Part shown: in pieces, positions 44,049 to 62,408 of the stretch
How the letters are laid out: each line of letters starts with the position of its first letter
Position numbering within the stretch: position 1 is the first letter of the stretch
Source: Candidatus Heimdallarchaeum aukensis
Lineage (GTDB): Archaea > Asgardarchaeota > Heimdallarchaeia > Heimdallarchaeales > Heimdallarchaeaceae
Length of the DNA stretch: 64,000 bases
Reading direction: 5' to 3'
NCBI GenBank assembly: GCA_021513695.1
Contig: CP084166.1
Span: 352,001-416,000, forward strand
Notes under the pieces: generated by a model
The model's database searches: none
Told to the model about the DNA's origin: nothing
The model's input: the letters and a program-made list of their open reading frames with translations, nothing else
Program-made: the position numbers and the translations under genes

Positions 44049-45362
44049 ATGCAAACTTTCTTTGACTCAGCTTTAGAAGCAGAATTTAATAAAATATACG
44101 AAAAATTGAAAAAACTTGAACGAAAAAACGATGACGAGTATCAAAGTGACTTGTCTTTCCTACTTGAACATTTTAGGATTTTTGAACCACTTGATACTAC
44201 TTGTCAAAGAGAAGACTTTAGCGTTTCTGCAATAGATGGGAGTGGAGCCAGCGATTTAATTAAATTGAATAATATTTCAGTACACCTTATCACTGCAGGC
44301 TTTTCTGCAGATCAAACAGATTTTAAAAAAGGAACCACAACAGAATTAGATATTAGACCTGAAATTAGTACATATCCCAACGGTGTAACTAAACTTGTTT
44401 TAATAAGAGAAGATGAAGAACTAGAAGTATGGGAAGAAATTACCAATTTTGTAAGAGAAAATTATGGTAAAGAACCAAAAGAAATAGTTTTTGATGTTCT
44501 TAGGACCATGATTTTAAGAAAAATGGAAAATGAAGGTAAAGATATTTCCAAAATACGAATAAAAAACACTTTCGAATTATTACATCAAGCTAAACTTGCA
44601 GGTTTTACTCTTTATAATAAACCATTAGAAAAATTTCATGAATGGATGATAAGTCCGAGACCACAGACTGGATGGTATGACCAGTTTAGAGAAATATTAG
44701 AATATTCTCTGGCATTTTCTATTTTGAAAACTAATAAAAAAATAAAATATTTATTCATTGATGGTTCAATGAACATGCTAATCTCAAAGAATCATAATCA
44801 ACCAAGATTAATTTCTAATTACCTTTTACGTGATTTATGTACAGAAGCTCTAAAGCGAGACACATGTGTAGTAGCTGTAAGTAAAACAACTACTTTTCCT
44901 TTTATTTACAAAATAGCTCAAGATGTTAGAAATCATCTTAAAGGAGAAAAAAAATGGTTTTTCCGTGTTCCTTCTAAGGAATTAGGAGAGACTCCTCTTC
45001 GTCTGTTAGAAGGAAAAAGTATTCCTCCAGAGAATGCTATTACTTATCTTTTCCATTTTTCTGCAGATTTACCTGTTTTAAGGATAGACTTCGATTTAGA
45101 TTGGTGGAAGAAGAATATTCATTCAGAAGATAAAGAAAAAGAGAAAGAGAGAGAAGTTGAGATGTTTAAAGAAATTGATTGGTTGTCTCGAGATGTAAGA
45201 TATCATGGTTATCTTTTTGATCTTGCTTTCTCTCATTTTAATGCTCTAATAACTTTCAAAGAGAGAGATTTAATTGCGGATAGATTAATTGATTTCTTTA
45301 CTGAAAAAGGTGAAGATCCAAGGAGATATATACACCCAAGAAAAAGATTAGGATTAATGTAA
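44049..45362 (+). CDS. nurA: NurA-family 5'-3' nuclease (HerA partner)
   Basis: 437 aa. N-terminal VSAIDGSGAS (the NurA motif-I Asp in an IDGS context), plus a second FIDGSMN. Immediately upstream of herA with a 12-nt gap. The operon context supports the call. Confidence 0.55.
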   Translation: MQTFFDSALEAEFNKIYEKLKKLERKNDDEYQSDLSFLLEHFRIFEPLDTTCQREDFSVSAIDGSGASDLIKLNNISVHLITAGFSADQTDFKKGTTTELDIRPEISTYPNGVTKLVLIREDEELEVWEEITNFVRENYGKEPKEIVFDVLRTMILRKMENEGKDISKIRIKNTFELLHQAKLAGFTLYNKPLEKFHEWMISPRPQTGWYDQFREILEYSLAFSILKTNKKIKYLFIDGSMNMLISKNHNQPRLISNYLLRDLCTEALKRDTCVVAVSKTTTFPFIYKIAQDVRNHLKGEKKWFFRVPSKELGETPLRLLEGKSIPPENAITYLFHFSADLPVLRIDFDLDWWKKNIHSEDKEKEKEREVEMFKEIDWLSRDVRYHGYLFDLAFSHFNALITFKERDLIADRLIDFFTEKGEDPRRYIHPRKRLGLM

Positions 45363-45374
45363 AAAGGTGAAAAA

Positions 45375-47255
45375 ATGGTAAAATTAGAATTAACAGAACC
45401 AATAGGAATATTAGCAGAAGGAGATATCTCATCGTTAAAAGTGATATCAAAGGATATTAGATATCAAGTTGGTGAAATATTAATTATCACCCATCCTGAA
45501 ACTCCGGAAATCTATTTGTTTCGGGTGATGAATTATGAAAATATTCTCCGATCAAGTTCTGATATGAGCTATGTTGCTTCAAATATTTTGAAAAACAGAA
45601 CAGCATATATTGCGAGGGTAGAAAATGAGAAAATGGTAAAAGTATCTGGAATCTTGATGGGTTACTCTCTTTATGATGAAAATAAGAAAAAGTGGATTCT
45701 ACATAAACCTCGCTCTCTCCCTCCTCATTTTTCATATGTTTATCGAGGGTCTGAGTGTAAAGCAGCCTTACAAGATCTCTTATGGTCAGAATTTGGTAAT
45801 GATATAGAAATAGGAAAATTACAAGTAGGTGCTACAACCTTAGATATCCCAATTAAACTAGATGTAGAAGCTCTTCCAATGCATGTACAAGTAGCAGGAA
45901 CAACAGGAGCAGGAAAATCTTTCTTCATGTTGACAATGATTACTTCAAGTCTTAAAAATAATGTAATTAACGCTTTAAAACCTTCAAAGGCAGATACTAT
46001 TAACAAGAAAATTTCTTTCTTCATGGTAGACGTACATGATGAATACATGAGAGGAATGAAAGAACCTGAAACAAATGCAAGATATGGTATAAAAGATATA
46101 GCTGAAGCAAGCTTAAAGCAAGATAAAGATATTTACAACCTTCTATTTGGAAAGAATTTCTATCTTACTTCTGATATGGAAAGTGTAGAAAAAGATATGC
46201 AAAAATATGCTAAAGCCTTACGTTTCAGACTTGAAGATATAGAGGTAAGTGATATCATTTCAGTAATGGAAGTCACAGATCAAATGGCTTCATTCATGTA
46301 TTGGATTAAATCTCATAATGAAAATTGGATTTCAACTATTTTAGAATTAGGAGAAGAAGATGATCAAGGAGGATTTTCTAAAGGGACAGTAAATGCAGTA
46401 AAAAGAAGGCTCAGGAGTATATACAACTCTCCTATTTTCAGAGAGTCGAGAACTATCACAACTTCTGATGAAAAAAATCAAGAACAATCAAGCGTTAGTT
46501 TTAGTGATTTAGCAGAAATAGTTTACAATTTAGAACAAGGACATTTCTATAATTTTAGTTCAGCACTATTAAGTTCGACAGAACAATTTATCGTTTTAAC
46601 TATGTTAGCAAGAACAATCTTTGCTTTAAGACAATCTTTAATGTCTTCTACAAGATGGTCTCAGTTTGAAAAACAAGTAGAGTCAAGATTACCAAGACAA
46701 ATAAGTAACGAATTGCTAGGAAAAACAAATTCTTCTTTTTCGATAAAGGATCTCTATATTAAAAATAAAGAAGGAAACGACTATATTCTTAAAAAAGTGA
46801 ATGAACTTCCTGTAATTCTTCTCACAATTGAAGAAGCTCCAAGTATTTTGGGAGTACAGATGTCTAAACAAGGAAATGTGTTCGTTGACATTAGTAGACA
46901 AGGAAGAAAGTTTGGAATAGGCATGTTACTTATTACTCAAAATATTTCAGCGATGGAACCTTTGATTTTAGCCAATACAAACACAGAAATAAACATGATG
47001 CTAGGAAATGAGATAGAGATAAAACAAGCAATCATCAACGCCAGTAACAACATTACAGGATACGAACATGAGTTTAGAGTATTAAACAGAGGTGAAGCTA
47101 TAGTTACTAACTCTTTACGCAATATTCCCATGCCTGTGAAGATACACAATGCACCAGTTTTAATTAAAGAAAATTTGTCTTTCTTTGAAAATCCTTATGA
47201 TAGTTTGAAAATAAAAAAAGAAAAAAGGATATCTAAAGATATTCCTCTTCTTTAA
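45375..47255 (+). CDS. herA: HerA-family (FtsK/HerA superfamily) hexameric DNA translocase/helicase
   Basis: 626 aa. Walker A VAGTTGAGKS. Candidate Walker B FFMVDVHDEY. Conserved C-terminal RQGRKFGIGMLLITQNIS (the HerA arginine-finger region). The N-terminal region before the ATPase core is consistent with a HAS barrel. Confidence 0.75.
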   Translation: MVKLELTEPIGILAEGDISSLKVISKDIRYQVGEILIITHPETPEIYLFRVMNYENILRSSSDMSYVASNILKNRTAYIARVENEKMVKVSGILMGYSLYDENKKKWILHKPRSLPPHFSYVYRGSECKAALQDLLWSEFGNDIEIGKLQVGATTLDIPIKLDVEALPMHVQVAGTTGAGKSFFMLTMITSSLKNNVINALKPSKADTINKKISFFMVDVHDEYMRGMKEPETNARYGIKDIAEASLKQDKDIYNLLFGKNFYLTSDMESVEKDMQKYAKALRFRLEDIEVSDIISVMEVTDQMASFMYWIKSHNENWISTILELGEEDDQGGFSKGTVNAVKRRLRSIYNSPIFRESRTITTSDEKNQEQSSVSFSDLAEIVYNLEQGHFYNFSSALLSSTEQFIVLTMLARTIFALRQSLMSSTRWSQFEKQVESRLPRQISNELLGKTNSSFSIKDLYIKNKEGNDYILKKVNELPVILLTIEEAPSILGVQMSKQGNVFVDISRQGRKFGIGMLLITQNISAMEPLILANTNTEINMMLGNEIEIKQAIINASNNITGYEHEFRVLNRGEAIVTNSLRNIPMPVKIHNAPVLIKENLSFFENPYDSLKIKKEKRISKDIPLL

Positions 47256-47288
47256 TAATAGAATCAAAAATAATTTGAATGAAAGAAG

Positions 47289-48570
47289 GTGAAATTAGTG
47301 GTAAAAATAGCTCATATGTCTGATACTCATTTATCACATAGAAGAGTAAGAAATGTTAGAGATAGTTGGAAAGAAAGATATAGAGTAAGTTGGATAGAGA
47401 ATGACTTTTCATTAGCTTTTCAAAGAGCTTTAGATGCAGCTATTGAAACTAAATGTGATTTTCTAGTTCATTCAGGAGATTTGTTTGATGTTCCTGTAAA
47501 AAGAAATACAACTTCACCTTCTGAATATGCAAGAGCTATTGCAATAAGTGAAATAAGAAGATTTTTGGAAGCTACACATTTTAAAGTACCTATAATTATA
47601 ATTGATGGAAATCATGGAACTTATCTTTACAGGAATAATAGTACTATAGAATTCATAAAATCAGCTTTCCCTGAAAATGTGTTTATAGCCACAAATTATG
47701 ACCTTAAACGAGCAATAGTAAAAAATGAACCTTTGAAAGTAGAGTTTGAAGAGATTAACTTTTATCTGTTTCCTTATTTAGAATTCAAATCTATGGCTAA
47801 TTATGAAGAACTCTATGATGAATGGATAAGTAAATGCCAAGAGCCTGAAGACGGAAAAATTAATGTTGCAGTAGCTCACGGAATGTTTAGGAATTTGGAT
47901 TTGCATGAAAAATTATTCTCTTTTCCTTATGATTATGTAGCTTTAGGACACGATCACCAACAAAGAAAATATGCTCCAAACGCTTGGCAAGCAGGAAGTA
48001 CAGAAAAATATACCTTTGCTGAAAGAGGACAAGAAAAGTATTTTAGAAGTTATTATTGAGAAAGGAAAAAATTTACACATTAATCCAATAAAGGTTGTTA
48101 GCCAAAGAGAAATGAAACAATTCGAAGTAGAATTAAGTTCAGACATGAGTGCATTAACTGTAGAAGAAAAAATAAGAGAACTTGTAGCAAGTTATAGAAA
48201 GAACTTTGATGGAAACACAGCTGCGAGAATAAAAGTTAAGTTACAAGGAAAAACTTCTCTCTCCTACTGGTGGACAATAGAAGATCGTTTAGTAGAAATA
48301 CAGAAAAATGTTCTAACTGAAGAATATAACATCCTAGAATTTAGATGGGATGAAGAAGAGTTAAAGAAATCTATACCTCAAAGCCTAGCCAAAACACCAC
48401 AAATGGATCAATACCTAATTGAAGATCCAGTCAGGGATTTTGTAAATTATTTGAAAAACTTAGAAATAGATGATGAAGTAAAATTTGAACAATATGCAAA
48501 ACTAGGACCAGAAATAATTAAAGAGGTTTTTAGTGAAGGATTTATTTCTTCAAAGGAGGAGTTAGAATGA
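47289..48570 (+). pseudogene. mre11: mre11 copy 1, disrupted by a frameshift (split into ORFs 47289..48059 and 47971..48570)
   Basis: All Mre11 phosphoesterase motifs are present (DTHLS, GDLFD, GNHG, VAHG, GHDHQ). The reading frame changes at caagaaaag|tatttt (about 48036). Copy 2 has caagaaaaaggtatttt and a single 427-aa ORF. Confidence 0.8.
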
Positions 48571-50699
48571 AAATTCTTTGGATACACATGGAGAATTTTA
48601 AATGCTACCGCAATGAGAGGATTCCAGAAACAGGTATCCTTCCAAAAGGATTGATTTTTGTAGAGGGAGAGAATTCGGTAGGAAAAACTTCTTTGTTTGA
48701 TGCAATATATTACGCTCTTTTTTACGAACCTACAAAGGACAAAGCCATTTTAGGTACAAAAGATATGCTAGTAAAAAGAGGAGAAAAAGAGACTATCGTA
48801 GAAGTTGCTTTTGAAATAATGAATAAATACTTTGTAGTACAAAAGCAACATGGAATATCAACTCCTCTAAAAGTAGTTTTACTTCAAATTGATAGAGAGA
48901 TGGCTGAAAAAGGAGAATTAAAAAATCCCATTAAAATAGCAGAAGGACTAGAGGATGTAAACAAGAAATTGTTTGAACTATTAAATATCACAAGCGAAAG
49001 CGTGTTGAGCACTCTAATAGTAAATCAAGGAGAAGTGCAAAAACTAGCAGAAGCTAAAGGAGCAGAACTTAGAGATATAATTTACAAACTTTTTCATTTA
49101 GATGATATAAGAGAAAAGTTGAAACGTGTGATTAATAGAAAAATGGAGATTTTAGATGAAGAATGGGAAAAATACAAAATTGAGCGCACAACAGAGAATA
49201 TTCTTGAAGAAATTAAAGAAATAGAGATAGAGAAAGAAACGAAAGAGAAAGAGTTAGTAAAAGCAAAAAATGAACTGGAAAAAATAGAAGAGAAAATCTC
49301 TCAATATCCTAAACATGAAGATATTCAATCAATAAGCAATATTTTAACTCAAATACAGCAAACCAAAGAAACTATTTCTAAGCAAGAAAGAATAATTAAA
49401 CAAAAATCTGAAACTTTAGAAATCAAGGAACTAACACAAGAAGAAATAAAGGATAAAATCTTAGAAATAGAGAAGATTATTCAGAAAACTAACAATAACA
49501 TAGAAAATTTAAGAAACAAAAGAGATAAAGTCCAGAAAAAGTTGCATAGTCTCCAAAGAGATCTTGCTGAAATAAAAGAAAAAATCAAGAAACTAGAAAG
49601 TCATGAAGTAGGACATGAAGAAGATTTTACTTGCGAATTATGCGAACAAACGATGCCCTACTCGAAATTTAAGGAATTAGTAGAGAGTAAAAAACAATCA
49701 ATTACAAATATTGAATTAGGGATTAAGAAAAGAACTGCAGAAAAAAGAGAAGTAGAGAAACAAATTGAAAAAGAAAGCAATTATATTAATAAGCTAAAAG
49801 AACAAATTTTTTCACTTAATAATGTCAAAGATAGGCTAGATAATCTAGAGAATAACAAGAAAGAATTGGATAAAAAACAAAATAATTTAATAACACAACT
49901 TAAAAAATTCAAAGTCCAGACAGTTGATCAGCTTTCAAAGAAATATAATGTCGAAAACTTTGAGGAATTCTTTTCAATTATAAGTCAACTGAAATCTGAT
50001 AAAGCTAGTCTAAATGCATCAATAAGTCATCTAAATAAAACTATTGAAAAACTAAAACAAAGGAAAAATCAATTAGAAAAAGAAATAGACAAAAATAAGG
50101 AAAAGGAAGAGAAACAAGAGAGTATTCTTCAAGAACAAGCTGCACTAAAAGATGTAGAAGGTGTAGTTTCAAGTTTTATAGCTGAGGAGCTAATCTCCAA
50201 TAGATTGCTTGCAGGAATACAGCAGACAACTAATCCTAATATAAACTTGTTTACGAGAGGAAAATACTCAGAGATATATCTAGAAGCAACTACAAAGAAA
50301 ACTTTAAGGTTAAGCGTTTTAGACAAAGAAGAAGAATTCGTAAAAAATCAAGAGTTCCTTTCAGGAGGAGATAAAGCAGCTATAGGACTAGGATTGAGAT
50401 TAGGTATAAGCGAATTACTAAAACAAATTAGACCATTCAAAGATTCTCCTCATAATCCTCCAAGGATGGATATAATGATACTTGATGAGCCTTTGGGTTC
50501 ACTTGATAGTGAAAGAAGGAAAAAAGTTCTAGAAGGATTGTTGATACAGAAGAAATTCAGTCAAATATTTCTGATTACACATACAAATGTTAGAGAAGAA
50601 CTTCGAGCTCCTTCAATTCGAGTAAGTAGAACAGAAAAAGGTAGCTCTACAGCCTATTACCCTGCTCCAAGTAAAATAGAGTTAGAATCTGAAGAATGA
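48567..50699 (+). CDS. rad50: Rad50-family SMC-like ATPase (copy 1)
   Basis: 710 aa. Walker A GENSVGKTSLFDAI. Long central coiled coil with a CxxC zinc hook (CELC) near the mid-point (about residue 354). Signature LSGGDKAAIGLGLRL. Walker B IMILDEP. H-loop LITHT. The start overlaps the mre11 stop (ATGA). Confidence 0.8.
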   Translation: MKILWIHMENFKCYRNERIPETGILPKGLIFVEGENSVGKTSLFDAIYYALFYEPTKDKAILGTKDMLVKRGEKETIVEVAFEIMNKYFVVQKQHGISTPLKVVLLQIDREMAEKGELKNPIKIAEGLEDVNKKLFELLNITSESVLSTLIVNQGEVQKLAEAKGAELRDIIYKLFHLDDIREKLKRVINRKMEILDEEWEKYKIERTTENILEEIKEIEIEKETKEKELVKAKNELEKIEEKISQYPKHEDIQSISNILTQIQQTKETISKQERIIKQKSETLEIKELTQEEIKDKILEIEKIIQKTNNNIENLRNKRDKVQKKLHSLQRDLAEIKEKIKKLESHEVGHEEDFTCELCEQTMPYSKFKELVESKKQSITNIELGIKKRTAEKREVEKQIEKESNYINKLKEQIFSLNNVKDRLDNLENNKKELDKKQNNLITQLKKFKVQTVDQLSKKYNVENFEEFFSIISQLKSDKASLNASISHLNKTIEKLKQRKNQLEKEIDKNKEKEEKQESILQEQAALKDVEGVVSSFIAEELISNRLLAGIQQTTNPNINLFTRGKYSEIYLEATTKKTLRLSVLDKEEEFVKNQEFLSGGDKAAIGLGLRLGISELLKQIRPFKDSPHNPPRMDIMILDEPLGSLDSERRKKVLEGLLIQKKFSQIFLITHTNVREELRAPSIRVSRTEKGSSTAYYPAPSKIELESEE

Positions 50700-50775
50700 T
50701 TCTTTTTTCATTATCTTTATCTTTTTTGAGAATAATATTTATATCTAAAAATGGAAATGTTCTCTAGGGTTTGAA

Positions 50776-52146
50776 ATGATACCTGGAACACTTAGACCTT
50801 TACCAAAAAGATTAGCTAAAGTAAAAACAGAAGCTGAAAGGCTTTTTAGAGCAGTGGACTATGATTACGAGACTATTAAAGAAATACTAAAATCTAGTAA
50901 AAATTTTGAATTTGAAGAAATAAGAAGACAATATATTAATTGTATAAATCATCACATAAGAATAGTTCCACTCGTAAAAGAAGCAGATAAATTGTTAGTT
51001 AAATATTCAAGAGATCCACTTCTAAAAGAAATGGTTTTCAAACTATTTGATAAGTTGGAAAAATATGAATACAGATTGAATGGTGATATTCAACGACTTG
51101 ATACTATTTTAATGTCGAAAAGAAAAGAATACATCAATAAAACAATTCCACTAGTGAAATCAGAAATAAGAAGCAAGTTATCTTTCTTAAGAGACCTAGA
51201 TTTTGAGCAATTACTCGCTGACAGTGAAAAATATTCTGCTATTATTTCAGGCATCGTAGATCGTGTAAATATATTAAAAGACGAGTATCAAAAATTAATC
51301 GAAAATGCTCTTGAAAGCGCAGTAGAAGCTTATAAAGAGTTAAAAGAAAAACTAGACGAACTTGAAGATGAACTAAAAGAGTATGTTCTTATTCTTGCTA
51401 CTTGTAAGATGGAATTGCTAATTAACGATTCAAAAACTTTGCTTGAAGAAGGAGTTAAAATATTCGAACGTTTTGAATTAGAACAAACAACTGAACTCAT
51501 AGAAGAAGCACAAGAGTACCTAGAAAAAGCAAAACCAACTCTAAAAGAGATGAATGAATTAAAGGTAGATATTCCTAAAAAAGCAATGAAAAAGAGCTTT
51601 GAAACAAAATTCCGAGAATTAAGAAATAAATTCGAAGAAAATAAATTTACTCTAGATGAATTGATAAACAACATCGAAACTAGAAATAGGTTACTATCGA
51701 CAAATATTGAAAGAATTGATGCATTAAAAGAGCTAGCAAAATCAATGTCGAGTGACATCAAAGAAACAGGAGAAATATTAAAAATAAAAAGAATGGGTAC
51801 ATTTAAACTATACTTGAAAGAAAATCTTATTCCACACATGGAGTTGCAAGAAAATGGTATAGTAAAAATACCAAAGGCAGAAGAACTCACGGCAACTTTT
51901 ATAGATGAAATAATCTTGACTCTTGAAGATGTAGATAATAAAAATATAGTTAAGGACTGGTTCAATGCTTTTAGAGCAACAAAAGTAGGTAAGTGGATAT
52001 ATGAAACTTCAATCAAAATTAAAAATAAAATAGTAGACATAACAAAGAAGATTGTAAAAAAAACTAAAAAATGGATCCAAGAAATGAAAGAAAAAAGAGA
52101 ACAGAAAAAATCGCAAGAAAATCAACAAAAAGAAGAGAAGAAATAG
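50776..52146 (+). CDS. Uncharacterised 456-aa coiled-coil protein (copy 1), co-oriented immediately after rad50
   Basis: Highly charged sequence with heptad-like K/E/L content throughout. No enzymatic motif. Lysine-rich C-terminal tail. Duplicated with mre11-rad50. Confidence 0.6.
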   Translation: MIPGTLRPLPKRLAKVKTEAERLFRAVDYDYETIKEILKSSKNFEFEEIRRQYINCINHHIRIVPLVKEADKLLVKYSRDPLLKEMVFKLFDKLEKYEYRLNGDIQRLDTILMSKRKEYINKTIPLVKSEIRSKLSFLRDLDFEQLLADSEKYSAIISGIVDRVNILKDEYQKLIENALESAVEAYKELKEKLDELEDELKEYVLILATCKMELLINDSKTLLEEGVKIFERFELEQTTELIEEAQEYLEKAKPTLKEMNELKVDIPKKAMKKSFETKFRELRNKFEENKFTLDELINNIETRNRLLSTNIERIDALKELAKSMSSDIKETGEILKIKRMGTFKLYLKENLIPHMELQENGIVKIPKAEELTATFIDEIILTLEDVDNKNIVKDWFNAFRATKVGKWIYETSIKIKNKIVDITKKIVKKTKKWIQEMKEKREQKKSQENQQKEEKK

Positions 52147-52311
52147 CAACATTATGTGATTTTGTGTTTTTGTGTAAAAATTCTCTATTTTTTTGTTAAA
52201 TTTATTACTATATAATAATGAATACAAAAAGAAATTAGGTTGAAATTATATCATTCATTGAATTTTTGAAAAAATTTTTGCCAAAAAAAATAAATATTTA
52301 GTTATATATAT

Positions 52312-52542
52312 GTGGTATGTATTAAAATGACTTCAGATTCATCTTGTTATTGTATTGTAAGAATAACTTGGCCTAAATGGATAGTTGCAACTGGACAGAT
52401 AGCTTTAGGTATTGGAATACTCTTATTGATCATTTTTTCGATCTTTTACACAAAGACAAGTTGGGAAAATTTTTCGCTATACGGAATCTACGTGGGAGCA
52501 GGTTTTTTGCTACTTGGGGCACTAATTAGCTATAGTTACTAA
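52312..52542 (+). CDS. Small 2-TM membrane protein (copy 1). The last 5 codons are replaced by the duplication junction, so it ends ...LISYSY instead of ...LILSSNDW
   Basis: 76 aa, two hydrophobic helices. Its C-terminus reads into the herA 3' fragment at 52528. Confidence 0.4.
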   Translation: MVCIKMTSDSSCYCIVRITWPKWIVATGQIALGIGILLLIIFSIFYTKTSWENFSLYGIYVGAGFLLLGALISYSY

Positions 52543-52687
52543 CTCTTTACGCAATATTCCCATGCCTGTGAAGATACACAATGCACCAGTTTTAATTAAA
52601 GAAAATTTGTCTTTCTTTGAAAATCCTTATGATAGTTTGAAAATAAAAAAAGAAAAAAGGATATCTAAAGATATTCCTCTTCTTTAA
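52528..52687 (+). pseudogene. herA: Orphan herA 3' fragment (last 53 codons plus stop) created by the tandem duplication
   Basis: Identical to 47096..47255. No start codon and no upstream herA body. Confidence 0.8.
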
Positions 52688-52720
52688 TAATAGAATCAAA
52701 AATAATTTGAATGAAAGAAG

Positions 52721-54004
52721 GTGAAATTAGTGGTAAAAATAGCTCATATGTCTGATACTCATTTATCACATAGAAGAGTAAGAAATGTTAGAGATAGTTG
52801 GAAAGAAAGATATAGAGTAAGTTGGATAGAGAATGACTTTTCATTAGCTTTTCAAAGAGCTTTAGATGCAGCTATTGAAACTAAATGTGATTTTCTAGTT
52901 CATTCAGGAGATTTGTTTGATGTTCCTGTAAAAAGAAATACAACTTCACCTTCTGAATATGCAAGAGCTATTGCAATAAGTGAAATAAGAAGATTTTTGG
53001 AAGCTACACATTTTAAAGTACCTATAATTATAATTGATGGAAATCATGGAACTTATCTTTACAGGAATAATAGTACTATAGAATTCATAAAATCAGCTTT
53101 CCCTGAAAATGTGTTTATAGCCACAAATTATGACCTTAAACGAGCAATAGTAAAAAATGAACCTTTGAAAGTAGAGTTTGAAGAGATTAACTTTTATCTG
53201 TTTCCTTATTTAGAATTCAAATCTATGGCTAATTATGAAGAACTCTATGATGAATGGATAAGTAAATGCCAAGAGCCTGAAGACGGAAAAATTAATGTTG
53301 CAGTAGCTCACGGAATGTTTAGGAATTTGGATTTGCATGAAAAATTATTCTCTTTTCCTTATGATTATGTAGCTTTAGGACACGATCACCAACAAAGAAA
53401 ATATGCTCCAAACGCTTGGCAAGCAGGAAGTACAGAAAAATATACCTTTGCTGAAAGAGGACAAGAAAAAGGTATTTTAGAAGTTATTATTGAGAAAGGA
53501 AAAAATTTACACATTAATCCAATAAAGGTTGTTAGCCAAAGAGAAATGAAACAATTCGAAGTAGAATTAAGTTCAGACATGAGTGCATTAACTGTAGAAG
53601 AAAAAATAAGAGAACTTGTAGCAAGTTATAGAAAGAACTTTGATGGAAACACAGCTGCGAGAATAAAAGTTAAGTTACAAGGAAAAACTTCTCTCTCCTA
53701 CTGGTGGACAATAGAAGATCGTTTAGTAGAAATACAGAAAAATGTTCTAACTGAAGAATATAACATCCTAGAATTTAGATGGGATGAAGAAGAGTTAAAG
53801 AAATCTATACCTCAAAGCCTAGCCAAAACACCACAAATGGATCAATACCTAATTGAAGATCCAGTCAGGGATTTTGTAAATTATTTGAAAAACTTAGAAA
53901 TAGATGATGAAGTAAAATTTGAACAATATGCAAAACTAGGACCAGAAATAATTAAAGAGGTTTTTAGTGAAGGATTTATTTCTTCAAAGGAGGAGTTAGA
54001 ATGA
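52721..54004 (+). CDS. mre11: Mre11 nuclease (calcineurin-like phosphoesterase), intact copy
   Basis: 427 aa, uninterrupted. Motifs I-V: HMSDTHLSH, DFLVHSGDLFD, IIDGNHG, VAVAHG, ALGHDHQ. The C-terminal capping/DNA-binding domain is present. Confidence 0.85.
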   Translation: MKLVVKIAHMSDTHLSHRRVRNVRDSWKERYRVSWIENDFSLAFQRALDAAIETKCDFLVHSGDLFDVPVKRNTTSPSEYARAIAISEIRRFLEATHFKVPIIIIDGNHGTYLYRNNSTIEFIKSAFPENVFIATNYDLKRAIVKNEPLKVEFEEINFYLFPYLEFKSMANYEELYDEWISKCQEPEDGKINVAVAHGMFRNLDLHEKLFSFPYDYVALGHDHQQRKYAPNAWQAGSTEKYTFAERGQEKGILEVIIEKGKNLHINPIKVVSQREMKQFEVELSSDMSALTVEEKIRELVASYRKNFDGNTAARIKVKLQGKTSLSYWWTIEDRLVEIQKNVLTEEYNILEFRWDEEELKKSIPQSLAKTPQMDQYLIEDPVRDFVNYLKNLEIDDEVKFEQYAKLGPEIIKEVFSEGFISSKEELE

Positions 54005-56130
54005 AAATTCTTTGGATACACATGGAGAATTTTAAATGCTACCGCAATGAGAGGATTCCAGAAACAGGTATCCTTCCAAAAGGATTGATTTTTGTAGAGG
54101 GAGAGAATTCGGTAGGAAAAACTTCTTTGTTTGATGCAATATATTACGCTCTTTTTTACGAACCTACAAAGGACAAAGCCATTTTAGGTACAAAAGATAT
54201 GCTAGTAAAAAGAGGAGAAAAAGAGACTATCGTAGAAGTTGCTTTTGAAATAATGAATAAATACTTTGTAGTACAAAAGCAACATGGAATATCAACTCCT
54301 CTAAAAGTAGTTTTACTTCAAATTGATAGAGAGATGGCTGAAAAAGGAGAATTAAAAAATCCCATTAAAATAGCAGAAGGACTAGAGGATGTAAACAAGA
54401 AATTGTTTGAACTATTAAATATCACAAGCGAAAGCGTGTTGAGCACTCTAATAGTAAATCAAGGAGAAGTGCAAAAACTAGCAGAAGCTAAAGGAGCAGA
54501 ACTTAGAGATATAATTTACAAACTTTTTCATTTAGATATAAGAGAAAAGTTGAAACGTGTGATTAATAGAAAAATGGAGATTTTAGATGAAGAATGGGAA
54601 AAATACAAAATTGAGCGCACAACAGAGAATATTCTTGAAGAAATTAAAGAAATAGAGATAGAGAAAGAAACGAAAGAGAAAGAGTTAGTAAAAGCAAAAA
54701 ATGAACTGGAAAAAATAGAAGAGAAAATCTCTCAATATCCTAAACATGAAGATATTCAATCAATAAGCAATATTTTAACTCAAATACAGCAAACCAAAGA
54801 AACTATTTCTAAGCAAGAAAGAATAATTAAACAAAAATCTGAAACTTTAGAAATCAAGGAACTAACACAAGAAGAAATAAAGGATAAAATCTTAGAAATA
54901 GAGAAGATTATTCAGAAAACTAACAATAACATAGAAAATTTAAGAAACAAAAGAGATAAAGTCCAGAAAAAGTTGCATAGTCTCCAAAGAGATCTTGCTG
55001 AAATAAAAGAAAAAATCAAGAAACTAGAAAGTCATGAAGTAGGACATGAAGAAGATTTTACTTGCGAATTATGCGAACAAACGATGCCCTACTCGAAATT
55101 TAAGGAATTAGTAGAGAGTAAAAAACAATCAATTACAAATATTGAATTAGGGATTAAGAAAAGAACTGCAGAAAAAAGAGAAGTAGAGAAACAAATTGAA
55201 AAAGAAAGCAATTATATTAATAAGCTAAAAGAACAAATTTTTTCACTTAATAATGTCAAAGATAGGCTAGATAATCTAGAGAATAACAAGAAAGAATTGG
55301 ATAAAAAACAAAATAATTTAATAACACAACTTAAAAAATTCAAAGTCCAGACAGTTGATCAGCTTTCAAAGAAATATAATGTCGAAAACTTTGAGGAATT
55401 CTTTTCAATTATAAGTCAACTGAAATCTGATAAAGCTAGTCTAAATGCATCAATAAGTCATCTAAATAAAACTATTGAAAAACTAAAACAAAGGAAAAAT
55501 CAATTAGAAAAAGAAATAGACAAAAATAAGGAAAAGGAAGAGAAACAAGAGAGTATTCTTCAAGAACAAGCTGCACTAAAAGATGTAGAAGGTGTAGTTT
55601 CAAGTTTTATAGCTGAGGAGCTAATCTCCAATAGATTGCTTGCAGGAATACAGCAGACAACTAATCCTAATATAAACTTGTTTACGAGAGGAAAATACTC
55701 AGAGATATATCTAGAAGCAACTACAAAGAAAACTTTAAGGTTAAGCGTTTTAGACAAAGAAGAAGAATTCGTAAAAAATCAAGAGTTCCTTTCAGGAGGA
55801 GATAAAGCAGCTATAGGACTAGGATTGAGATTAGGTATAAGCGAATTACTAAAACAAATTAGACCATTCAAAGATTCTCCTCATAATCCTCCAAGGATGG
55901 ATATAATGATACTTGATGAGCCTTTGGGTTCACTTGATAGTGAAAGAAGGAAAAAAGTTCTAGAAGGATTGTTGATACAGAAGAAATTCAGTCAAATATT
56001 TCTGATTACACATACAAATGTTAGAGAAGAACTTCGAGCTCCTTCAATTCGAGTAAGTAGAACAGAAAAAGGTAGCTCTACAGCCTATTACCCTGCTCCA
56101 AGTAAAATAGAGTTAGAATCTGAAGAATGA
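54001..56130 (+). CDS. rad50: Rad50-family ATPase (copy 2; one Asp codon shorter, HLDIREK instead of HLDDIREK)
   Basis: 709 aa. Identical to copy 1 except for the in-frame 3-nt deletion. Confidence 0.8.
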   Translation: MKILWIHMENFKCYRNERIPETGILPKGLIFVEGENSVGKTSLFDAIYYALFYEPTKDKAILGTKDMLVKRGEKETIVEVAFEIMNKYFVVQKQHGISTPLKVVLLQIDREMAEKGELKNPIKIAEGLEDVNKKLFELLNITSESVLSTLIVNQGEVQKLAEAKGAELRDIIYKLFHLDIREKLKRVINRKMEILDEEWEKYKIERTTENILEEIKEIEIEKETKEKELVKAKNELEKIEEKISQYPKHEDIQSISNILTQIQQTKETISKQERIIKQKSETLEIKELTQEEIKDKILEIEKIIQKTNNNIENLRNKRDKVQKKLHSLQRDLAEIKEKIKKLESHEVGHEEDFTCELCEQTMPYSKFKELVESKKQSITNIELGIKKRTAEKREVEKQIEKESNYINKLKEQIFSLNNVKDRLDNLENNKKELDKKQNNLITQLKKFKVQTVDQLSKKYNVENFEEFFSIISQLKSDKASLNASISHLNKTIEKLKQRKNQLEKEIDKNKEKEEKQESILQEQAALKDVEGVVSSFIAEELISNRLLAGIQQTTNPNINLFTRGKYSEIYLEATTKKTLRLSVLDKEEEFVKNQEFLSGGDKAAIGLGLRLGISELLKQIRPFKDSPHNPPRMDIMILDEPLGSLDSERRKKVLEGLLIQKKFSQIFLITHTNVREELRAPSIRVSRTEKGSSTAYYPAPSKIELESEE

Positions 56131-56206
56131 TTCTTTTTTCATTATCTTTATCTTTTTTGAGAATAATATTTATATCTAAAAATGGAAATGTTCTCTAGGG
56201 TTTGAA

Positions 56207-57577
56207 ATGATACCTGGAACACTTAGACCTTTACCAAAAAGATTAGCTAAAGTAAAAACAGAAGCTGAAAGGCTTTTTAGAGCAGTGGACTATGATTACG
56301 AGACTATTAAAGAAATACTAAAATCTAGTAAAAATTTTGAATTTGAAGAAATAAGAAGACAATATATTAATTGTATAAATCATCACATAAGAATAGTTCC
56401 ACTCGTAAAAGAAGCAGATAAATTGTTAGTTAAATATTCAAGAGATCCACTTCTAAAAGAAATGGTTTTCAAACTATTTGATAAGTTGGAAAAATATGAA
56501 TACAGATTGAATGGTGATATTCAACGACTTGATACTATTTTAATGTCGAAAAGAAAAGAATACATCAATAAAACAATTCCACTAGTGAAATCAGAAATAA
56601 GAAGCAAGTTATCTTTCTTAAGAGACCTAGATTTTGAGCAATTACTCGCTGACAGTGAAAAATATTCTGCTATTATTTCAGGCATCGTAGATCGTGTAAA
56701 TATATTAAAAGACGAGTATCAAAAATTAATCGAAAATGCTCTTGAAAGCGCAGTAGAAGCTTATAAAGAGTTAAAAGAAAAACTAGACGAACTTGAAGAT
56801 GAACTAAAAGAGTATGTTCTTATTCTTGCTACTTGTAAGATGGAATTGCTAATTAACGATTCAAAAACTTTGCTTGAAGAAGGAGTTAAAATATTCGAAC
56901 GTTTTGAATTAGAACAAACAACTGAACTCATAGAAGAAGCACAAGAGTACCTAGAAAAAGCAAAACCAACTCTAAAAGAGATGAATGAATTAAAGGTAGA
57001 TATTCCTAAAAAAGCAATGAAAAAGAGCTTTGAAACAAAATTCCGAGAATTAAGAAATAAATTCGAAGAAAATAAATTTACTCTAGATGAATTGATAAAC
57101 AACATCGAAACTAGAAATAGGTTACTATCGACAAATATTGAAAGAATTGATGCATTAAAAGAGCTAGCAAAATCAATGTCGAGTGACATCAAAGAAACAG
57201 GAGAAATATTAAAAATAAAAAGAATGGGTACATTTAAACTATACTTGAAAGAAAATCTTATTCCACACATGGAGTTGCAAGAAAATGGTATAGTAAAAAT
57301 ACCAAAGGCAGAAGAACTCACGGCAACTTTTATAGATGAAATAATCTTGACTCTTGAAGATGTAGATAATAAAAATATAGTTAAGGACTGGTTCAATGCT
57401 TTTAGAGCAACAAAAGTAGGTAAGTGGATATATGAAACTTCAATCAAAATTAAAAATAAAATAGTAGACATAACAAAGAAGATTGTAAAAAAAACTAAAA
57501 AATGGATCCAAGAAATGAAAGAAAAAAGAGAACAGAAAAAATCGCAAGAAAATCAACAAAAAGAAGAGAAGAAATAG
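56207..57577 (+). CDS. Uncharacterised 456-aa coiled-coil protein (copy 2)
   Basis: Identical to 50776..52146. Confidence 0.6.
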   Translation: MIPGTLRPLPKRLAKVKTEAERLFRAVDYDYETIKEILKSSKNFEFEEIRRQYINCINHHIRIVPLVKEADKLLVKYSRDPLLKEMVFKLFDKLEKYEYRLNGDIQRLDTILMSKRKEYINKTIPLVKSEIRSKLSFLRDLDFEQLLADSEKYSAIISGIVDRVNILKDEYQKLIENALESAVEAYKELKEKLDELEDELKEYVLILATCKMELLINDSKTLLEEGVKIFERFELEQTTELIEEAQEYLEKAKPTLKEMNELKVDIPKKAMKKSFETKFRELRNKFEENKFTLDELINNIETRNRLLSTNIERIDALKELAKSMSSDIKETGEILKIKRMGTFKLYLKENLIPHMELQENGIVKIPKAEELTATFIDEIILTLEDVDNKNIVKDWFNAFRATKVGKWIYETSIKIKNKIVDITKKIVKKTKKWIQEMKEKREQKKSQENQQKEEKK

Positions 57578-57742
57578 CAACATTATGTGATTTTGTGTTT
57601 TTGTGTAAAAATTCTCTATTTTTTTGTTAAATTTATTACTATATAATAATGAATACAAAAAGAAATTAGGTTGAAATTATATCATTCATTGAATTTTTGA
57701 AAAAATTTTTGCCAAAAAAAATAAATATTTAGTTATATATAT

Positions 57743-57979
57743 GTGGTATGTATTAAAATGACTTCAGATTCATCTTGTTATTGTATTGTAAGAATAACTT
57801 GGCCTAAATGGATAGTTGCAACTGGACAGATAGCTTTAGGTATTGGAATACTCTTATTGATCATTTTTTCGATCTTTTACACAAAGACAAGTTGGGAAAA
57901 TTTTTCGCTATACGGAATCTACGTGGGAGCAGGTTTTTTGCTACTTGGGGCACTAATTCTATCAAGTAATGACTGGTAG
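57743..57979 (+). CDS. Small 2-TM membrane protein (copy 2, presumed original C-terminus)
   Basis: 78 aa. Identical to copy 1 up to residue 71. Confidence 0.4.
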   Translation: MVCIKMTSDSSCYCIVRITWPKWIVATGQIALGIGILLLIIFSIFYTKTSWENFSLYGIYVGAGFLLLGALILSSNDW

Positions 57980-58014
57980 GTAGAAGAAAGAAAAAGAAAA
58001 GGAAAAAAGAAACT

Positions 58015-60051
58015 TTAGAAAAATGCAAACGTGATAAACAAAGGAAGAAGAGTGATTGAAAGTATATTTTGGAGTTTGATTAAAATATGTAGAGAAGGTC
58101 CGGCAGTATCTTTTAGAGGATCACCTACTGTGTCTCCTATTACTGCCGCATCATGCGTTTCTGTTCCTTTACCTCCAAAATGTCCAAGTTCTATGTATTT
58201 CTTAGCGTTATCCCATGCTCCACCAGCGTTAAACATAAACATCGCTAATATTCCAGAAACCACCTTAACTGCAACAAGATAAGCTGCTAGGTACCATACA
58301 CCAACAAGGAAACCCATTATTATTGGTGCCAAAATAGCTATGAAAGTGGGTACAATCATTTCTTTTAAAGCATTTGTTGTGCTTATTCCCACACATCGAG
58401 AATAATCTGCATTGGATTCTCCCTTCAAAATACCAGGGTTTTCTCTAAATTGTCTTCTTACTTCATCAGCCATTTTGAAAGAAGCTCTTCCAACAGCTTT
58501 GATGATTAATGCAGAGAAAAGAAAAGGCATCGTTGCTCCAATGAATATAGCAGCAATACCAATGGGACTTGCAATGTTAACAACAAGATTAGATAAATCA
58601 GAAGCATCCATTCCGAGTAAATCAGCTGCTTGTGTAAGAAAAGCAAACAAGATAACTACAGAAGTTAATATACAAGTGGACATGGCATAACCTTTGGTTA
58701 TTGCTTTAGTTACGTTTCCCACACCATCTAATTCTTCTAAAGCAGAGCCTACTTCATCATTTATACCAGACATTGTAGCTATTCCTTCTGCATTATCTGC
58801 AATTGGCCCAAAAGTATCTGAACTCATTATTATTCCTGTAGAAGCGAGAACACCCATAGTAGCAGCAGCTACTCCGAAAACTCCAAGCATTCCTCCTCCC
58901 ATAATGAAATATGAAGCTACAGAGACTCCAGCAACAACAATTAAGGGAATAACAGGACTTTCAAGACCATAAGCTAAACCTATTATTATGTTTAAAGCTG
59001 GCCCACTCTGAGAACTTTTAGCAATTTCTTTTGTTACTCTCCCTCCAGTAATTGTGTAATAATTTACAAGCATAGAAACTACAAGAGTAAGCACTAAACC
59101 TAAGCCTAAAGTATAAAATAATCGAATATCCTTCATTAACCAGAAAGCAATAGCAAAAAATCCAGCCAATGAAATGAGACCAGAGACCAAAAATGACATG
59201 TAAACATTAGTACTTGTTTTACTTTTTGTTGCACGAACAAAGAAGACTCCTACGATTGAGCTTATTATTCCCACAGATTCAATTAAAAGAGGAAATATAA
59301 GCGCATTGTAGCCATAAACAGGAATAAAAACTAAACCAAGTATCATTGTTGCGATAATATTGTCTGAAAATGATTCAAAGAGATCAGCTCCTCTGCCTGC
59401 GCAATCTCCTACATTATCTCCTACTTGGTCTGCTATAGCTGCTGGATTTCTAGGGTCATCTTCAGGAATCTTGTTTTCGACTTTACCAACGAGATCAGCT
59501 CCAACATCTGCTGCTTTTGTATATATTCCTCCTCCAATCTGAGCAAATAAAGCGGCCAAACTCGCTCCAAAACCATATCCTACAAGAACAGTAGGATCTT
59601 CGCCGAATATCATAAACAAAATACCAATTCCCAGTAAACTTAAACCAACGATTGAAATACCTGTAACAGCTCCTCCTCTAAAAGCTACAACTACAGCTTT
59701 TCGACTATCAGTTCGAGCTTTATTTGCGGTACGAACATTAGCTCTAACAGCAATGCTCATTCCAATATACGCTGCAACAAGAGAAGAAATTGAACCAATA
59801 ACAAAGCTTAAAGCCACTTCCCACTGTAAAACTAACCACAACAGTATAGCAAGCAGTACTATAAACACTCCTATAGTAATGAATTCTCTCTTAAGAAAGG
59901 CTTTGGCCCCTTCGCGTATGAAACCTGCAATTTCTTTCATTCTATCTGTTCCTTCATCTTCTTTCATTACTAGATAAATCAAAAGGAAGACTACTAAAAT
60001 AGCAACAGAGCCAACTATTATACTTATGTACGCCAAATCCACCGTTTTCAC
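58015..60051 (-). CDS. hppA: Membrane-bound proton-translocating pyrophosphatase (H+-PPase), probably the K+-independent type
   Basis: 678 aa, about 16 TM helices. Hallmark motifs GGGIYTKAADVGADLVGKVE, DNVGDCAGRGADLFES and GDTVGDPLKDTAGPSL. The GNVTKAITKG motif carries the Lys that established work associates with K+ independence. Confidence 0.9.
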   Translation of the reverse strand: MKTVDLAYISIIVGSVAILVVFLLIYLVMKEDEGTDRMKEIAGFIREGAKAFLKREFITIGVFIVLLAILLWLVLQWEVALSFVIGSISSLVAAYIGMSIAVRANVRTANKARTDSRKAVVVAFRGGAVTGISIVGLSLLGIGILFMIFGEDPTVLVGYGFGASLAALFAQIGGGIYTKAADVGADLVGKVENKIPEDDPRNPAAIADQVGDNVGDCAGRGADLFESFSDNIIATMILGLVFIPVYGYNALIFPLLIESVGIISSIVGVFFVRATKSKTSTNVYMSFLVSGLISLAGFFAIAFWLMKDIRLFYTLGLGLVLTLVVSMLVNYYTITGGRVTKEIAKSSQSGPALNIIIGLAYGLESPVIPLIVVAGVSVASYFIMGGGMLGVFGVAAATMGVLASTGIIMSSDTFGPIADNAEGIATMSGINDEVGSALEELDGVGNVTKAITKGYAMSTCILTSVVILFAFLTQAADLLGMDASDLSNLVVNIASPIGIAAIFIGATMPFLFSALIIKAVGRASFKMADEVRRQFRENPGILKGESNADYSRCVGISTTNALKEMIVPTFIAILAPIIMGFLVGVWYLAAYLVAVKVVSGILAMFMFNAGGAWDNAKKYIELGHFGGKGTETHDAAVIGDTVGDPLKDTAGPSLHILIKLQNILSITLLPLFITFAFF

Positions 60052-60350
60052 CTTAATATTTTCTTTTCAATATTTTACAAAAAACCAAAAAACATTACTT
60101 TCTTTTAAATGTATTGCTAATTTTTGTACAGAAATGTTAATTAATTAACTATTATAATAGTTGTCTATGATGCTTTATAGACATAAACCGTTAATAAACG
60201 TTAAAAGCTAATAAGAATTGAAAAACGATAATAAAAATAGAATAATACATATTGTTATTAAAACAATTTTAAGGTTAATAAAACAAAGATTGTGTTATAG
60301 AGCAAAGAAAAAAGTTAAATGTAATTATATGAAATAAATTTGTTAATAGT

Positions 60351-61121
60351 GTGGATAAAATGGTTGAAAATAACTTTTTAAACAATCTAAATAGCTTTTT
60401 GAAAGAGTTTAGTTTGGAAAGTTCTAAGATTATGGAGAATATTAATTTCTTCTTTTTATTCTTCAATGATCTAAATGTAGAGATAGAAAAAAGCAATTTT
60501 TCTGAAATTGATAAAAAACTTGTTTCTTATTCTTTTGAAGCTTTTGATTTAACCTTAAAAAAAACCTATAGATTTATTCAAGATAACTGTTTGTATATTT
60601 TTGAAAAAAAACAAGATTACAATAATGATGTGAAAAAACTAGACATGTATGAAACAATCGTAAAAGAGATTTATTATGCCTTAGGAGATTTTTATTTAGA
60701 GAAATATGCTGGGTTAGTTTCATTTATTAAGGATAATGATATTAAAATAAATCTCAAATTATACTCTAAATTTAGGACTATTTTTCTCAGATTACTAAAT
60801 CAAATCCAATCTTTGAAACAATATATAATCAAAGATGAAGAACTAAACAAATTAACTAATTGGAGAAAAAGTAAATTACAAGAATTGATTCACTCTTCAA
60901 CTTCAATTAATCTTGAAAAATTATCTGAACAACTACATTTTGATAACTCTATTGAACTTGAGCAGTGGATAATACAGATTTCTTCAGACATTTTTCTTAT
61001 TGATGATAATATTCTCAAAATATCAAGGTCTGTTACTGATGACGAAATAGCTGAATCTATAGATTCTTTGCTAAACGAGTTTAAGAAATATGAAACATTA
61101 GGTTTAGGAAAAAAAATCTGA
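60351..61121 (+). CDS. Hypothetical alpha-helical protein with a C-terminal winged-helix-like module shared with the next gene
   Basis: 256 aa. C-terminal LSEQLHFDNSIELEQWIIQISSDIFLIDDNILKI aligns with [33 protein letters not shown] of the downstream LRR protein. Confidence 0.45.
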   Translation: MDKMVENNFLNNLNSFLKEFSLESSKIMENINFFFLFFNDLNVEIEKSNFSEIDKKLVSYSFEAFDLTLKKTYRFIQDNCLYIFEKKQDYNNDVKKLDMYETIVKEIYYALGDFYLEKYAGLVSFIKDNDIKINLKLYSKFRTIFLRLLNQIQSLKQYIIKDEELNKLTNWRKSKLQELIHSSTSINLEKLSEQLHFDNSIELEQWIIQISSDIFLIDDNILKISRSVTDDEIAESIDSLLNEFKKYETLGLGKKI

Positions 61122-61130
61122 GGAGTTAAA

Positions 61131-61931: not shown

Positions 61932-62369
61932 CAATCTATTGTTTTCTTTCACTTTTTTTTCAAATTTTAAAGACGTTGAATTAATACAATAGCGTAAACC
62001 TGTTTTATCTTTAGGCCCATCGTCAAAAACGTGTCCTAAATGACCTCCACAATTACTACAGACTATTTCTGTTCTAATCATTCCGTGAGAAGTATCTAAT
62101 TGTTCTTTTACGGCGTTTGGATCGACTGGTTCAAAAAAACTAGGCCATCCACAACCTGATTTGAATTTTGCAGATGATCTAAATAATTGTTGACCGCAAC
62201 CAGCACAACTGTAAATTCCACTTTCAAAATGGTCGTAATATTCTCCAGAAAAAGGTCTCTCTGTTCCCTTTAACCTTAAGATGTAATATTGGTCTTTGGT
62301 CAGCTTTTTTTTCCAATATTCATCTGTTGAATTTCCATTTTTAAATTTATTCACATTATAAAGTAGCAA
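61920..62369 (-). CDS. msrB: Peptide-methionine (R)-S-oxide reductase MsrB
   Basis: 149 aa. Zn-binding CxxC pairs (CAGCGQQLF; [16 protein letters not shown]). Catalytic RYCINS motif. Confidence 0.85.
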
Positions 62370-62408
62370 TCGAGCTTTAAATCAATATTGATTTCACAAA
62401 TTTAAAAA

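Follow-up and report, generated by a model that had tools for sequence, protein, structure and literature searches.

The closest described system to the locus analysed here is the archaeal nurA-herA-mre11-rad50 end-resection cluster. In the deposited genome of Candidatus Heimdallarchaeum aukensis, mre11 and rad50 of this cluster appear twice, within a head-to-tail repeat, and the repeat itself can be compared both with spontaneous tandem amplification in prokaryotes and with false duplications produced by long-read scaffolding. Prokaryotic populations often contain spontaneous tandem duplications, which are unstable, and a genuine tandem amplification is recognised by twofold read depth and by reads across its junction. 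Amplification of DNA by MDA or PCR, on the other hand, creates chimeric joins. LRScaf, by its own description, merges contigs that have a negative gap; an independent benchmark attributed inflated duplication largely to LRScaf scaffolding (PMC10166144).

Very few Heimdallarchaeial genomes count as 'complete'; that of Ca. H. aukensis is among them and serves as a reference for work on the origin of eukaryotes. The deposited MAG (3,081,793 bp; raw reads in BioProject PRJNA721962) is closed, circularised and pilon-polished, and the window was assigned to it by exact matches to its protein accessions. It was obtained from one DNA sample only, FW4588, from metaSPAdes contigs of Illumina PE150 reads (roughly 346x) that were passed through two rounds of LRScaf and then pilon (PMC8813620). 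The authors chose this Illumina-first route where Nanopore reads were few or short (PMC8813620). The Nanopore reads used for scaffolding were short and came from MDA-amplified and PCR-amplified DNA, and the resulting scaffold had identical sequences at both ends which needed trimming (PMC8813620). The genome is not a long-read assembly; its contigs are Illumina ones, and noisy Nanopore reads were used to join them into scaffolds. The pipeline is thus of a kind known for errors of this type (methods in PMC8813620; PMC10166144 on LRScaf). The source paper makes no mention of mre11, rad50 or herA (PMC8813620).

The repeat and its gene content

Coordinates refer to the window, the whole 64-kb stretch of DNA that was analysed. 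The features of the repeat and its surroundings are as follows.

44049-45362, + strand: nurA-like gene (437 aa, UJG41158), upstream of and outside the repeat; UniRef name 'NurA domain-containing'
45375-47255, + strand: herA (626 aa); final 160 nt inside copy 1
47096-52527, + strand: repeat unit copy 1 (5432 nt), lacking AG after 48037
47298-48570, + strand: mre11 copy 1, split by a 2-nt deletion into a 253-aa product and a second ORF
48037-48038, + strand: AG deletion site, AAAAAGG to AAAAG; derived form, unique to the deposit
48567-50699, + strand: rad50 copy 1 (710 aa, canonical)
50776-52146, + strand: 456-aa helical protein, copy 1 (earlier called 'coiled-coil'); no family match
52327-52542, + strand: chimeric 71-aa mini membrane protein, copy 1 (UJG41164), spanning the junction; C-terminus from herA-derived sequence
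52520-52535, no strand: novel junction CACTAATT/AGCTATAG, 0 nt microhomology; deposited assembly only
52528-57958, + strand: repeat unit copy 2 (5431 nt), lacking GAT after 54534
52528-52687, + strand: herA 3' relic (the last 160 nt of herA), which opens copy 2
52730-54004, + strand: mre11 copy 2 (424 aa, intact, canonical, UJG41165)
54001-56130, + strand: rad50 copy 2 (709 aa, one Asp fewer; HLDDIREK to HLDIREK)
54534-54535, + strand: GAT deletion site, GATGAT to GAT; derived form, unique to the deposit
56207-57577, + strand: 456-aa helical protein, copy 2; no family match
57758-57979, + strand: canonical 73-aa mini membrane protein (UJG41168); C-terminus kept in H. endolithica
58015-60051, - strand: hppA, membrane pyrophosphatase, which truly adjoins the unit on its right

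A global alignment of the copies bears out the near-perfect head-to-tail duplication at 47096-57958 that had been described from the sequence, with 0 substitutions and just two differences, a 2-nt indel in mre11 and a 3-nt indel in rad50. The start-to-start offsets of the genes (5432, 5434 and 5431 nt) also fall in the range of 5431-5434 nt given earlier. The unit begins within herA and finishes within the small membrane-protein gene, six sense codons before its stop rather than the five codons first counted, and both the herA 3' relic and the chimeric C-terminus are as claimed. The mini-protein of copy 1 ends in ...GALISYSY*, that of copy 2 in ...GALILSSNDW*. Identity between the copies ends abruptly on both sides, and the unit is the only repeat of at least 40 nt within the window. 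One sequence containing the junction is TTGGGGCACTAATTAGCTATAGTTACTAAC, and the two canonical boundary sequences are AACAGAGGTGAAGCTATAGTTACTAAC and TTGGGGCACTAATTCTATCAAGTAATGAC. Scans of the window supported the earlier statement that inverted repeats and junction microhomology are absent and that no integrase or transposase lies nearby: no inverted repeats were found in the 64 kb, and none of the genes called between ∼38.6 and 63.5 kb has an integrase or transposase domain. A scan for promoters and terminators at the junction gave nothing above shuffled expectation.

The gene identities also held: HerA, Mre11 (Metallophos/SbcD), Rad50 and the H+/Na+-PPase are confirmed, and NurA is so called by the source's name, the protein having no Pfam match. 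The locus thus has a HerA ATPase, an Mre11 phosphoesterase, a Rad50 ABC ATPase with a zinc hook and an adjoining NurA-like gene. The 710-aa Rad50 has the CxxC hook (CELC) and the Walker A, signature and Walker B motifs. In copy 1, mre11 is broken into the 253-aa product UJG41160 (47298-48059) and the second ORF (47971-48570).

An independent assembly and related genomes

Logan contig SRR15988954_191 (115,904 nt) was assembled independently from reads. Its sequence agrees with the window, with 100.000% identity and without gaps, at positions 343-47095 and 57959-63517; within the 63.2 kb compared, nothing differs but the second copy and the two indels. The contig passes both breakpoints unbranched, with one copy of the unit, an intact mre11 and a 710-aa rad50. 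Of the 200-nt probes used, those for the left and right breakpoints match this contig over their full length, whereas the junction probe matches as two separate halves only. In an independent assembly of this strain the duplication is therefore missing, and its junction was not found in these independent data from the same population. Since identity is perfect over 52 kb and a single sample is listed, SRR15988954 is probably an Illumina library of the same DNA as the deposit; we found no paper citing it in the literature searched.

Logan contigs are produced by simplifying a de Bruijn graph (k=31) and reading out its non-branching paths. A contig of this kind is unable to show two copies, because all of its 31-mers are distinct, so the argument rests on the unit edges being without a break: a fixed duplication would give branches at both edges, and the Logan contig would be broken there. 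The unbroken edges also fit a junction of low relative coverage, because graph simplification drops low-coverage connections.

The same picture is given by the proteins. The 71-aa chimera, the 253-aa truncated Mre11 and the 709-aa Rad50, all specific to the deposit, have NCBI/UniRef sources only, and the 709-aa Rad50 forms a protein cluster of one. Logan also contains their canonical counterparts (73, 424 and 710 aa), and the 73-aa and 710-aa forms occur in JGI MAG contigs too, where, as in Logan, the 710-aa protein is identical to that of copy 1.

Among relatives, the closed H. endolithica genome and a JGI contig (L008) each contain the whole unit once. In related MAGs, five contigs run without disturbance across at least one breakpoint, two of them spanning the whole unit once; the right breakpoint is crossed by L009, and the left by L005, L006 and an ENA contig (L013). 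In H. endolithica, L008 and L009 the mini-protein gene is joined directly to hppA. Strain SNPs beside the breakpoints were considered as a reason for contig ends and proved unconvincing, the nearest lying 3 nt past the right breakpoint (L009) and 34 nt past the left (L008). In searches with short words, a 24-mer across the junction had no match among metagenome contigs, but a control from the canonical right boundary, present verbatim in JGI contig Ga0366833_1007746, was likewise unmatched, so that the missing match has no bearing on the junction. An exact search of genome contigs with a 19-mer from the unit end gave just three chance matches, in Bacteroidetes MAGs.

The differences between the copies

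The AG at 53470-53471 in copy 2 is missing after 48037 in copy 1, where it causes the mre11 frameshift, and the GAT at 49101-49103 in copy 1 is missing after 54534 in copy 2, giving a Rad50 of 709 rather than 710 aa. AAAAAGG is present in all five loci which reach the AG site (L004-L008; L009 stops short of it), and GATGAT in six of six loci (L004-L009). No deletion is seen in any compared sequence that extends over an indel site. As natural divergence in this lineage comprises 176 substitutions to 6 gaps (L005 against the window), the chance of two out of two natural differences both being indels is ∼0.001. The differences between the copies, two indels unique to the deposit and 0 substitutions, thus do not follow the natural mutation spectrum.

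The sequence-only reading described these as reciprocal lesions. Both indels are indeed present as described; as biology they most likely do not stand, since neither the independent assembly nor the relatives contain them. Because the junction and both indels exist in the deposited record only, the lesions are most likely sequence errors, and long-read errors in homopolymers or short repeats are a plausible source. Against an artefact, the copy-specific indels are not simply accounted for by one Illumina contig behind both copies.

Origin of the second copy

The sequence-only reading left the choice between a very recent duplication and an assembly artefact. The one-copy independent assembly favours the latter and disfavours the former: because a single intact copy is found both in a read-based assembly of this strain and in all relatives, we consider it very likely, judging from assembled contigs, that the 5.4-kb duplication is false, a scaffolding artefact in which both lesions are sequence errors. 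The duplication is thus most likely not a real feature, and the organism would most likely have one nurA-herA-mre11-rad50-(456-aa gene)-(73-aa gene) cluster beside hppA. Whilst the single-copy, lesion-free structure is what the independent same-strain assembly and the relatives contain, the route to the error is one that we infer. Two intermediate contigs or scaffolds with a common 5.43-kb stretch, or one contig used twice, may have been abutted rather than merged, with Nanopore reads of the MDA-amplified DNA, chimeric or short, possibly behind the false join. The one indel per copy would then be leftover sequence or polishing errors at places where short reads map ambiguously. Since LRScaf is described as merging contigs with a negative gap, the precise failure mode in this scheme stays conjectural.

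A duplication truly existing in some or all cells of this close archaeal relative of eukaryotes, as a very recent mre11-rad50 amplification whose copies have complementary lesions, seems to us improbable. In one form of this explanation, a minority of H. aukensis cells would contain the tandem duplication, which would have been caught by some Nanopore reads and built into the consensus by the scaffolder. The unbranched Logan contig is compatible with such a low-coverage junction, but the explanation requires two more independent indels, one per copy and with 0 substitutions, in a rare recent variant. In addition, the Nanopore DNA was MDA-amplified and PCR-amplified, the junction is without microhomology or a flanking repeat, and it is seen in no other assembly; we regard a minority variant as unlikely. 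A duplication fixed in H. aukensis, with the copies of a recently amplified set of end-resection genes beginning reciprocal decay, would explain its presence in a circularised and pilon-polished genome and the complementary nature of the lesions, which leave one intact mre11 and one full-length rad50. It is nevertheless very improbable, as the independent assembly is unbranched at both unit edges and has neither lesion, collections built from reads lack the products that only the duplication yields, the inter-copy differences are all indels, and the mini-protein gene abuts hppA in the sister species, L008 and L009.

A tandem insertion of a mobile or excisable element has the repeat itself in its favour and nothing more. 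Neither terminal inverted repeats, nor a target-site duplication, nor junction microhomology, nor a nearby integrase, transposase or other recombinase gene was found; both ends of the unit lie within genes, herA on the left and a small gene on the right, and its content is a conserved chromosomal repair cluster at the same place in H. endolithica and related MAG contigs. A transposon or integrated mobile element is effectively refuted and its probability negligible, and it had been correctly stated that no mobile element is recognisable here.

If, as a scaffolding artefact implies, there is no second copy in the organism, ∼5.4 kb of the public sequence is spurious. Several proteins recorded there are then spurious or altered (UJG41160, the truncated Mre11; the product of the other mre11 fragment; UJG41164, the chimera; UJG41166, the Rad50 with one Asp fewer) or are duplicates (UJG41165 and UJG41167). 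The record would also give the wrong impression that mre11 and rad50 each occur twice and that one mre11 is a pseudogene. Biologically the locus is then ordinary, a single conserved repair cluster.

Compared with known systems, the repeat resembles false duplications from LRScaf-type scaffolding in being a near-perfect head-to-tail copy with blunt, homology-free edges, and in occurring only in the scaffolded assembly, for which LRScaf was used twice. It differs in the one small indel per copy, which would not follow simply from a contig having been used twice. With spontaneous prokaryotic tandem amplification it shares a few-kb head-to-tail arrangement and a novel junction, but the independent assembly is unbranched at the unit edges and the breakpoints have no repeat or microhomology. 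The cluster itself is like the archaeal nurA-herA-mre11-rad50 cluster in its four adjacent genes, on one strand and in the order nurA, herA, mre11, rad50, and in the CxxC hook and ABC ATPase motifs of its Rad50. In contrast to that cluster, all four proteins fall far under the NCBIfam family cut-offs, Rad50 is short (710 aa), and two conserved extra genes without a family match, for the 456-aa helical and the 73-aa membrane protein, follow downstream.

Structure and products of the tandem unit

Copy 1 of the unit (47096–52527, 5432 nt) is directly adjoined by copy 2 (52528–57958, 5431 nt). Global alignment of the two gave no substitutions and two indels, so the near-perfect head-to-tail duplication described in the sequence-only reading is borne out. 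Copy 2 carries an AG at 53470–53471 that is missing after 48037 in copy 1, and copy 1 carries a GAT at 49101–49103 that copy 2 lacks after position 54534. Identity is lost sharply at both edges of the unit. The comparison of its three boundary sequences, together with a repeat search of the window, agreed with the earlier statement that there is no microhomology at the junction and that inverted repeats are absent.

Boundary sequences of the unit
Left boundary, within herA: ..GAGGTGA / AGCTATAG
Copy 1/copy 2 junction, 52527/52528: ..CACTAATT / AGCTATAG
Right boundary, end of copy 2: ..CACTAATT / CTATCAAG

The unit is the sole repeat of at least 40 nt in the whole window. As had been reported, it ends inside the gene of a small membrane protein (the mini-protein), although six sense codons before the stop, not five. 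The gene names assigned earlier proved correct, and the lesions expected of each copy were seen: in copy 1, mre11 in two pieces and a chimeric 71-aa mini-protein; in copy 2, a 160-nt herA relic at the start and a rad50 minus one Asp.

Genes and products in and beside the unit (all accessions are exact protein matches)
Upstream of the unit; NurA-like gene; UJG41158, exact protein match
Upstream of the unit; HerA; UJG41159, exact protein match
Copy 1; truncated Mre11, 253 aa; UJG41160, exact protein match
Copy 1; Rad50, 710 aa; UJG41162, exact protein match
Both copies, 50776–52146 and 56207–57577; 456-aa helical protein; UJG41163/41167
Copy 1, spanning the junction; chimeric mini-protein, 71 aa; UJG41164
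Copy 2; intact Mre11, 424 aa; UJG41165
Copy 2; Rad50, 709 aa, without one Asp; UJG41166
57758–57979; mini-protein, 73 aa; UJG41168
Right of the unit, opposite strand; membrane pyrophosphatase (PPase) gene

A mobile element was considered and rejected, in keeping with the sequence-only reading: inverted repeats, a target-site duplication and a recombinase are all absent, the unit starts within herA and ends within a small gene, and its content is a conserved chromosomal cluster.

An independent assembly and related genomes

The Logan contig SRR15988954_191 (115,904 nt) was built directly from one public sequencing run. It is 100.000% identical, with no gaps, to 343–47095 and 57959–63517 of the window (three overlapping stretches compared), and over 63.2 kb it departs from the deposited genome only in lacking the extra 5.43-kb copy and in the two indels, of which each copy has one. 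Its gene order is NurA-HerA-Mre11 (424 aa, intact)-Rad50 (710 aa)-456 aa-73 aa-PPase. The 200-nt probes centred on either breakpoint, left or right, matched this contig end to end at 100%; the junction probe matched only as two separate halves. The contig ends at window position 63517, in an AT-rich intergenic stretch where no repeat was detected in the window.

Each Logan contig represents a non-branching path through a k=31 de Bruijn graph that has been simplified in a SPAdes-like manner, and by construction no 31-mer recurs in the contigs (Logan paper). A single copy in such a contig is therefore uninformative in itself. What does appear informative is that the contig runs unbroken through both edges of the unit. 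Judging from how such assemblers behave, a fixed duplication would produce a junction path with flank-like coverage, making both edges branch points at which the contig would end. The run is probably an Illumina library of the same DNA as the deposit, as 52 kb are perfectly identical and a single sample is listed; H. aukensis was obtained from one DNA sample only, FW4588, from incubation DRS71 (PMC8813620).

The relatives also show the single-copy arrangement. In the closed H. endolithica genome (CP084167.1) one copy of the unit is followed directly by the PPase gene, and JGI contig L008 holds the entire unit once. The right breakpoint is crossed into the PPase gene in MAG contig L009, and the left is crossed undisturbed in JGI contigs L005 and L006 and in ENA contig L013. 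The mini-protein C-terminus LILSSN[D/E]W is kept in both species, which makes the copy-1 ending the derived one. Products specific to the duplication are confined to the deposit.

Sources of duplication-specific and canonical products
Junction-spanning 71-aa protein; duplication-specific; NCBI/UniRef only
253-aa truncated Mre11; duplication-specific; NCBI/UniRef only
709-aa Rad50; duplication-specific; NCBI/UniRef only
73-aa mini-protein; canonical; NCBI, Logan, JGI
424-aa Mre11; canonical; NCBI, Logan
710-aa Rad50 (identical in two other Heimdallarchaeaceae MAGs); canonical; NCBI, Logan, JGI

L005 and L006, independent JGI contigs from close relatives, end at window positions 52416 and 52431, both inside the 73-aa gene and 96–111 nt before the position of the unit's right edge. 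No adjacent SNP explains these ends, and the region may be one where assembly graphs in this lineage tend to break. L006 (Ga0366835_1010727) also lacks, at ~12329–12337, some 68 nt matching window 50903–50970, early in the 456-aa gene, and the gene is thereby broken into products of 41 and 371 aa. Either true variation or misassembly of that MAG may account for the loss.

Origin of the duplication and the indels

The duplication is present in the deposit as described, and the sequence-only reading had left it as either a real recent event or an artefact. The unbranched, single-copy Logan contig favours the latter, and we consider a scaffolding artefact very probable. A duplication fixed in all H. 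aukensis cells would account for the deposited sequence, yet is hard to square with that contig, and we regard it as highly improbable. A real duplication limited to a minority of cells fits somewhat better, since graph simplification would strip a low-coverage junction from the Logan assembly, and is still unlikely.

The closed MAG (3,081,793 bp) was made from Illumina PE150 reads assembled into metaSPAdes contigs, the route its authors chose where Nanopore reads were few or short. Two LRScaf iterations followed; the Nanopore reads they used came from DNA that had first undergone multiple displacement amplification (MDA) and then, for the high-yield run, PCR. Identical sequences at the two scaffold ends were trimmed for circularisation, and pilon polishing was done at 346x coverage (PMC8813620). 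That paper makes no mention of mre11, rad50 or herA. Those identical ends show that, in at least one instance, this assembly included one sequence in two places. LRScaf joins contigs through long reads overhanging their ends, inserting Ns at positive gaps and merging contigs at negative ones (LRScaf description). In an independent benchmark, raised duplication was put down largely to LRScaf scaffolding (PMC10166144). Plausibly, the 5.43-kb stretch lay at the end of one intermediate scaffold and at the start of the next, and the two were abutted in the second round; chimeric MDA or PCR reads linking unit end to unit start may have helped. This is one plausible route among others, from which it is not distinguishable.

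The indels are most likely errors too. Between the H. aukensis strain and L005 (98.7% identical) there are 176 substitutions and 6 gaps, a ratio at which the chance of two out of two natural differences being indels is ~0.001, or a few percent if the indel share is relaxed tenfold. Both indel discrepancies with Logan fall inside the 10.9 kb duplicated of the 63.2 kb compared (chance probability ~0.03). Every locus among L004–L009 that covers an indel site has mre11 AAAAAGG and rad50 GATGAT, which makes each deletion a derived state private to the deposit. Reads of 150 nt cannot place copy-specific alleles in two otherwise identical 5.4-kb copies. The indels most likely stem from long-read sequence that was noisy, or else were introduced by polishing under ambiguous mapping, and the 'reciprocal lesions' of mre11 and rad50 would be errors. 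In practice, these results are of value for correcting a reference genome in wide use.

The underlying repair cluster

The order rad50, 456-aa gene, 73-aa gene is common to H. aukensis, H. endolithica and related MAG contigs; the H. endolithica counterparts (locus L007) lie at 15403–16821 (90% identity) and 16989–17210 (85%), respectively. Comparison with Pfam, NCBIfam and PDB sequences gave no significant match for either protein, and the two may be partners of the repair cluster that are specific to this lineage. Within the 456-aa gene there is a 236-aa antisense ORF (51330–52040 and 56761–57471, minus strand). It is probably spurious, a consequence of the strong purine bias of the coding strand (AT skew ~0.3, GC skew ~0.2 in the unit).

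The Mre11 of the unit is metallophosphoesterase/SbcD-like. Rad50 is short at 710 aa, and keeps its CxxC hook (CELC) and the Walker A, signature and Walker B motifs of the ATPase. For the NurA-like protein, neither Pfam nor NCBIfam gave any match, and HerA, Mre11 and Rad50 score far under the NCBIfam family cut-offs (117 bits for Rad50, against 700–1087). The repair proteins of window 44049–50699 are divergent Asgard versions, and the underlying biology is a single nurA-herA-mre11-rad50 cluster, divergent but ordinary, with two lineage-specific genes downstream.
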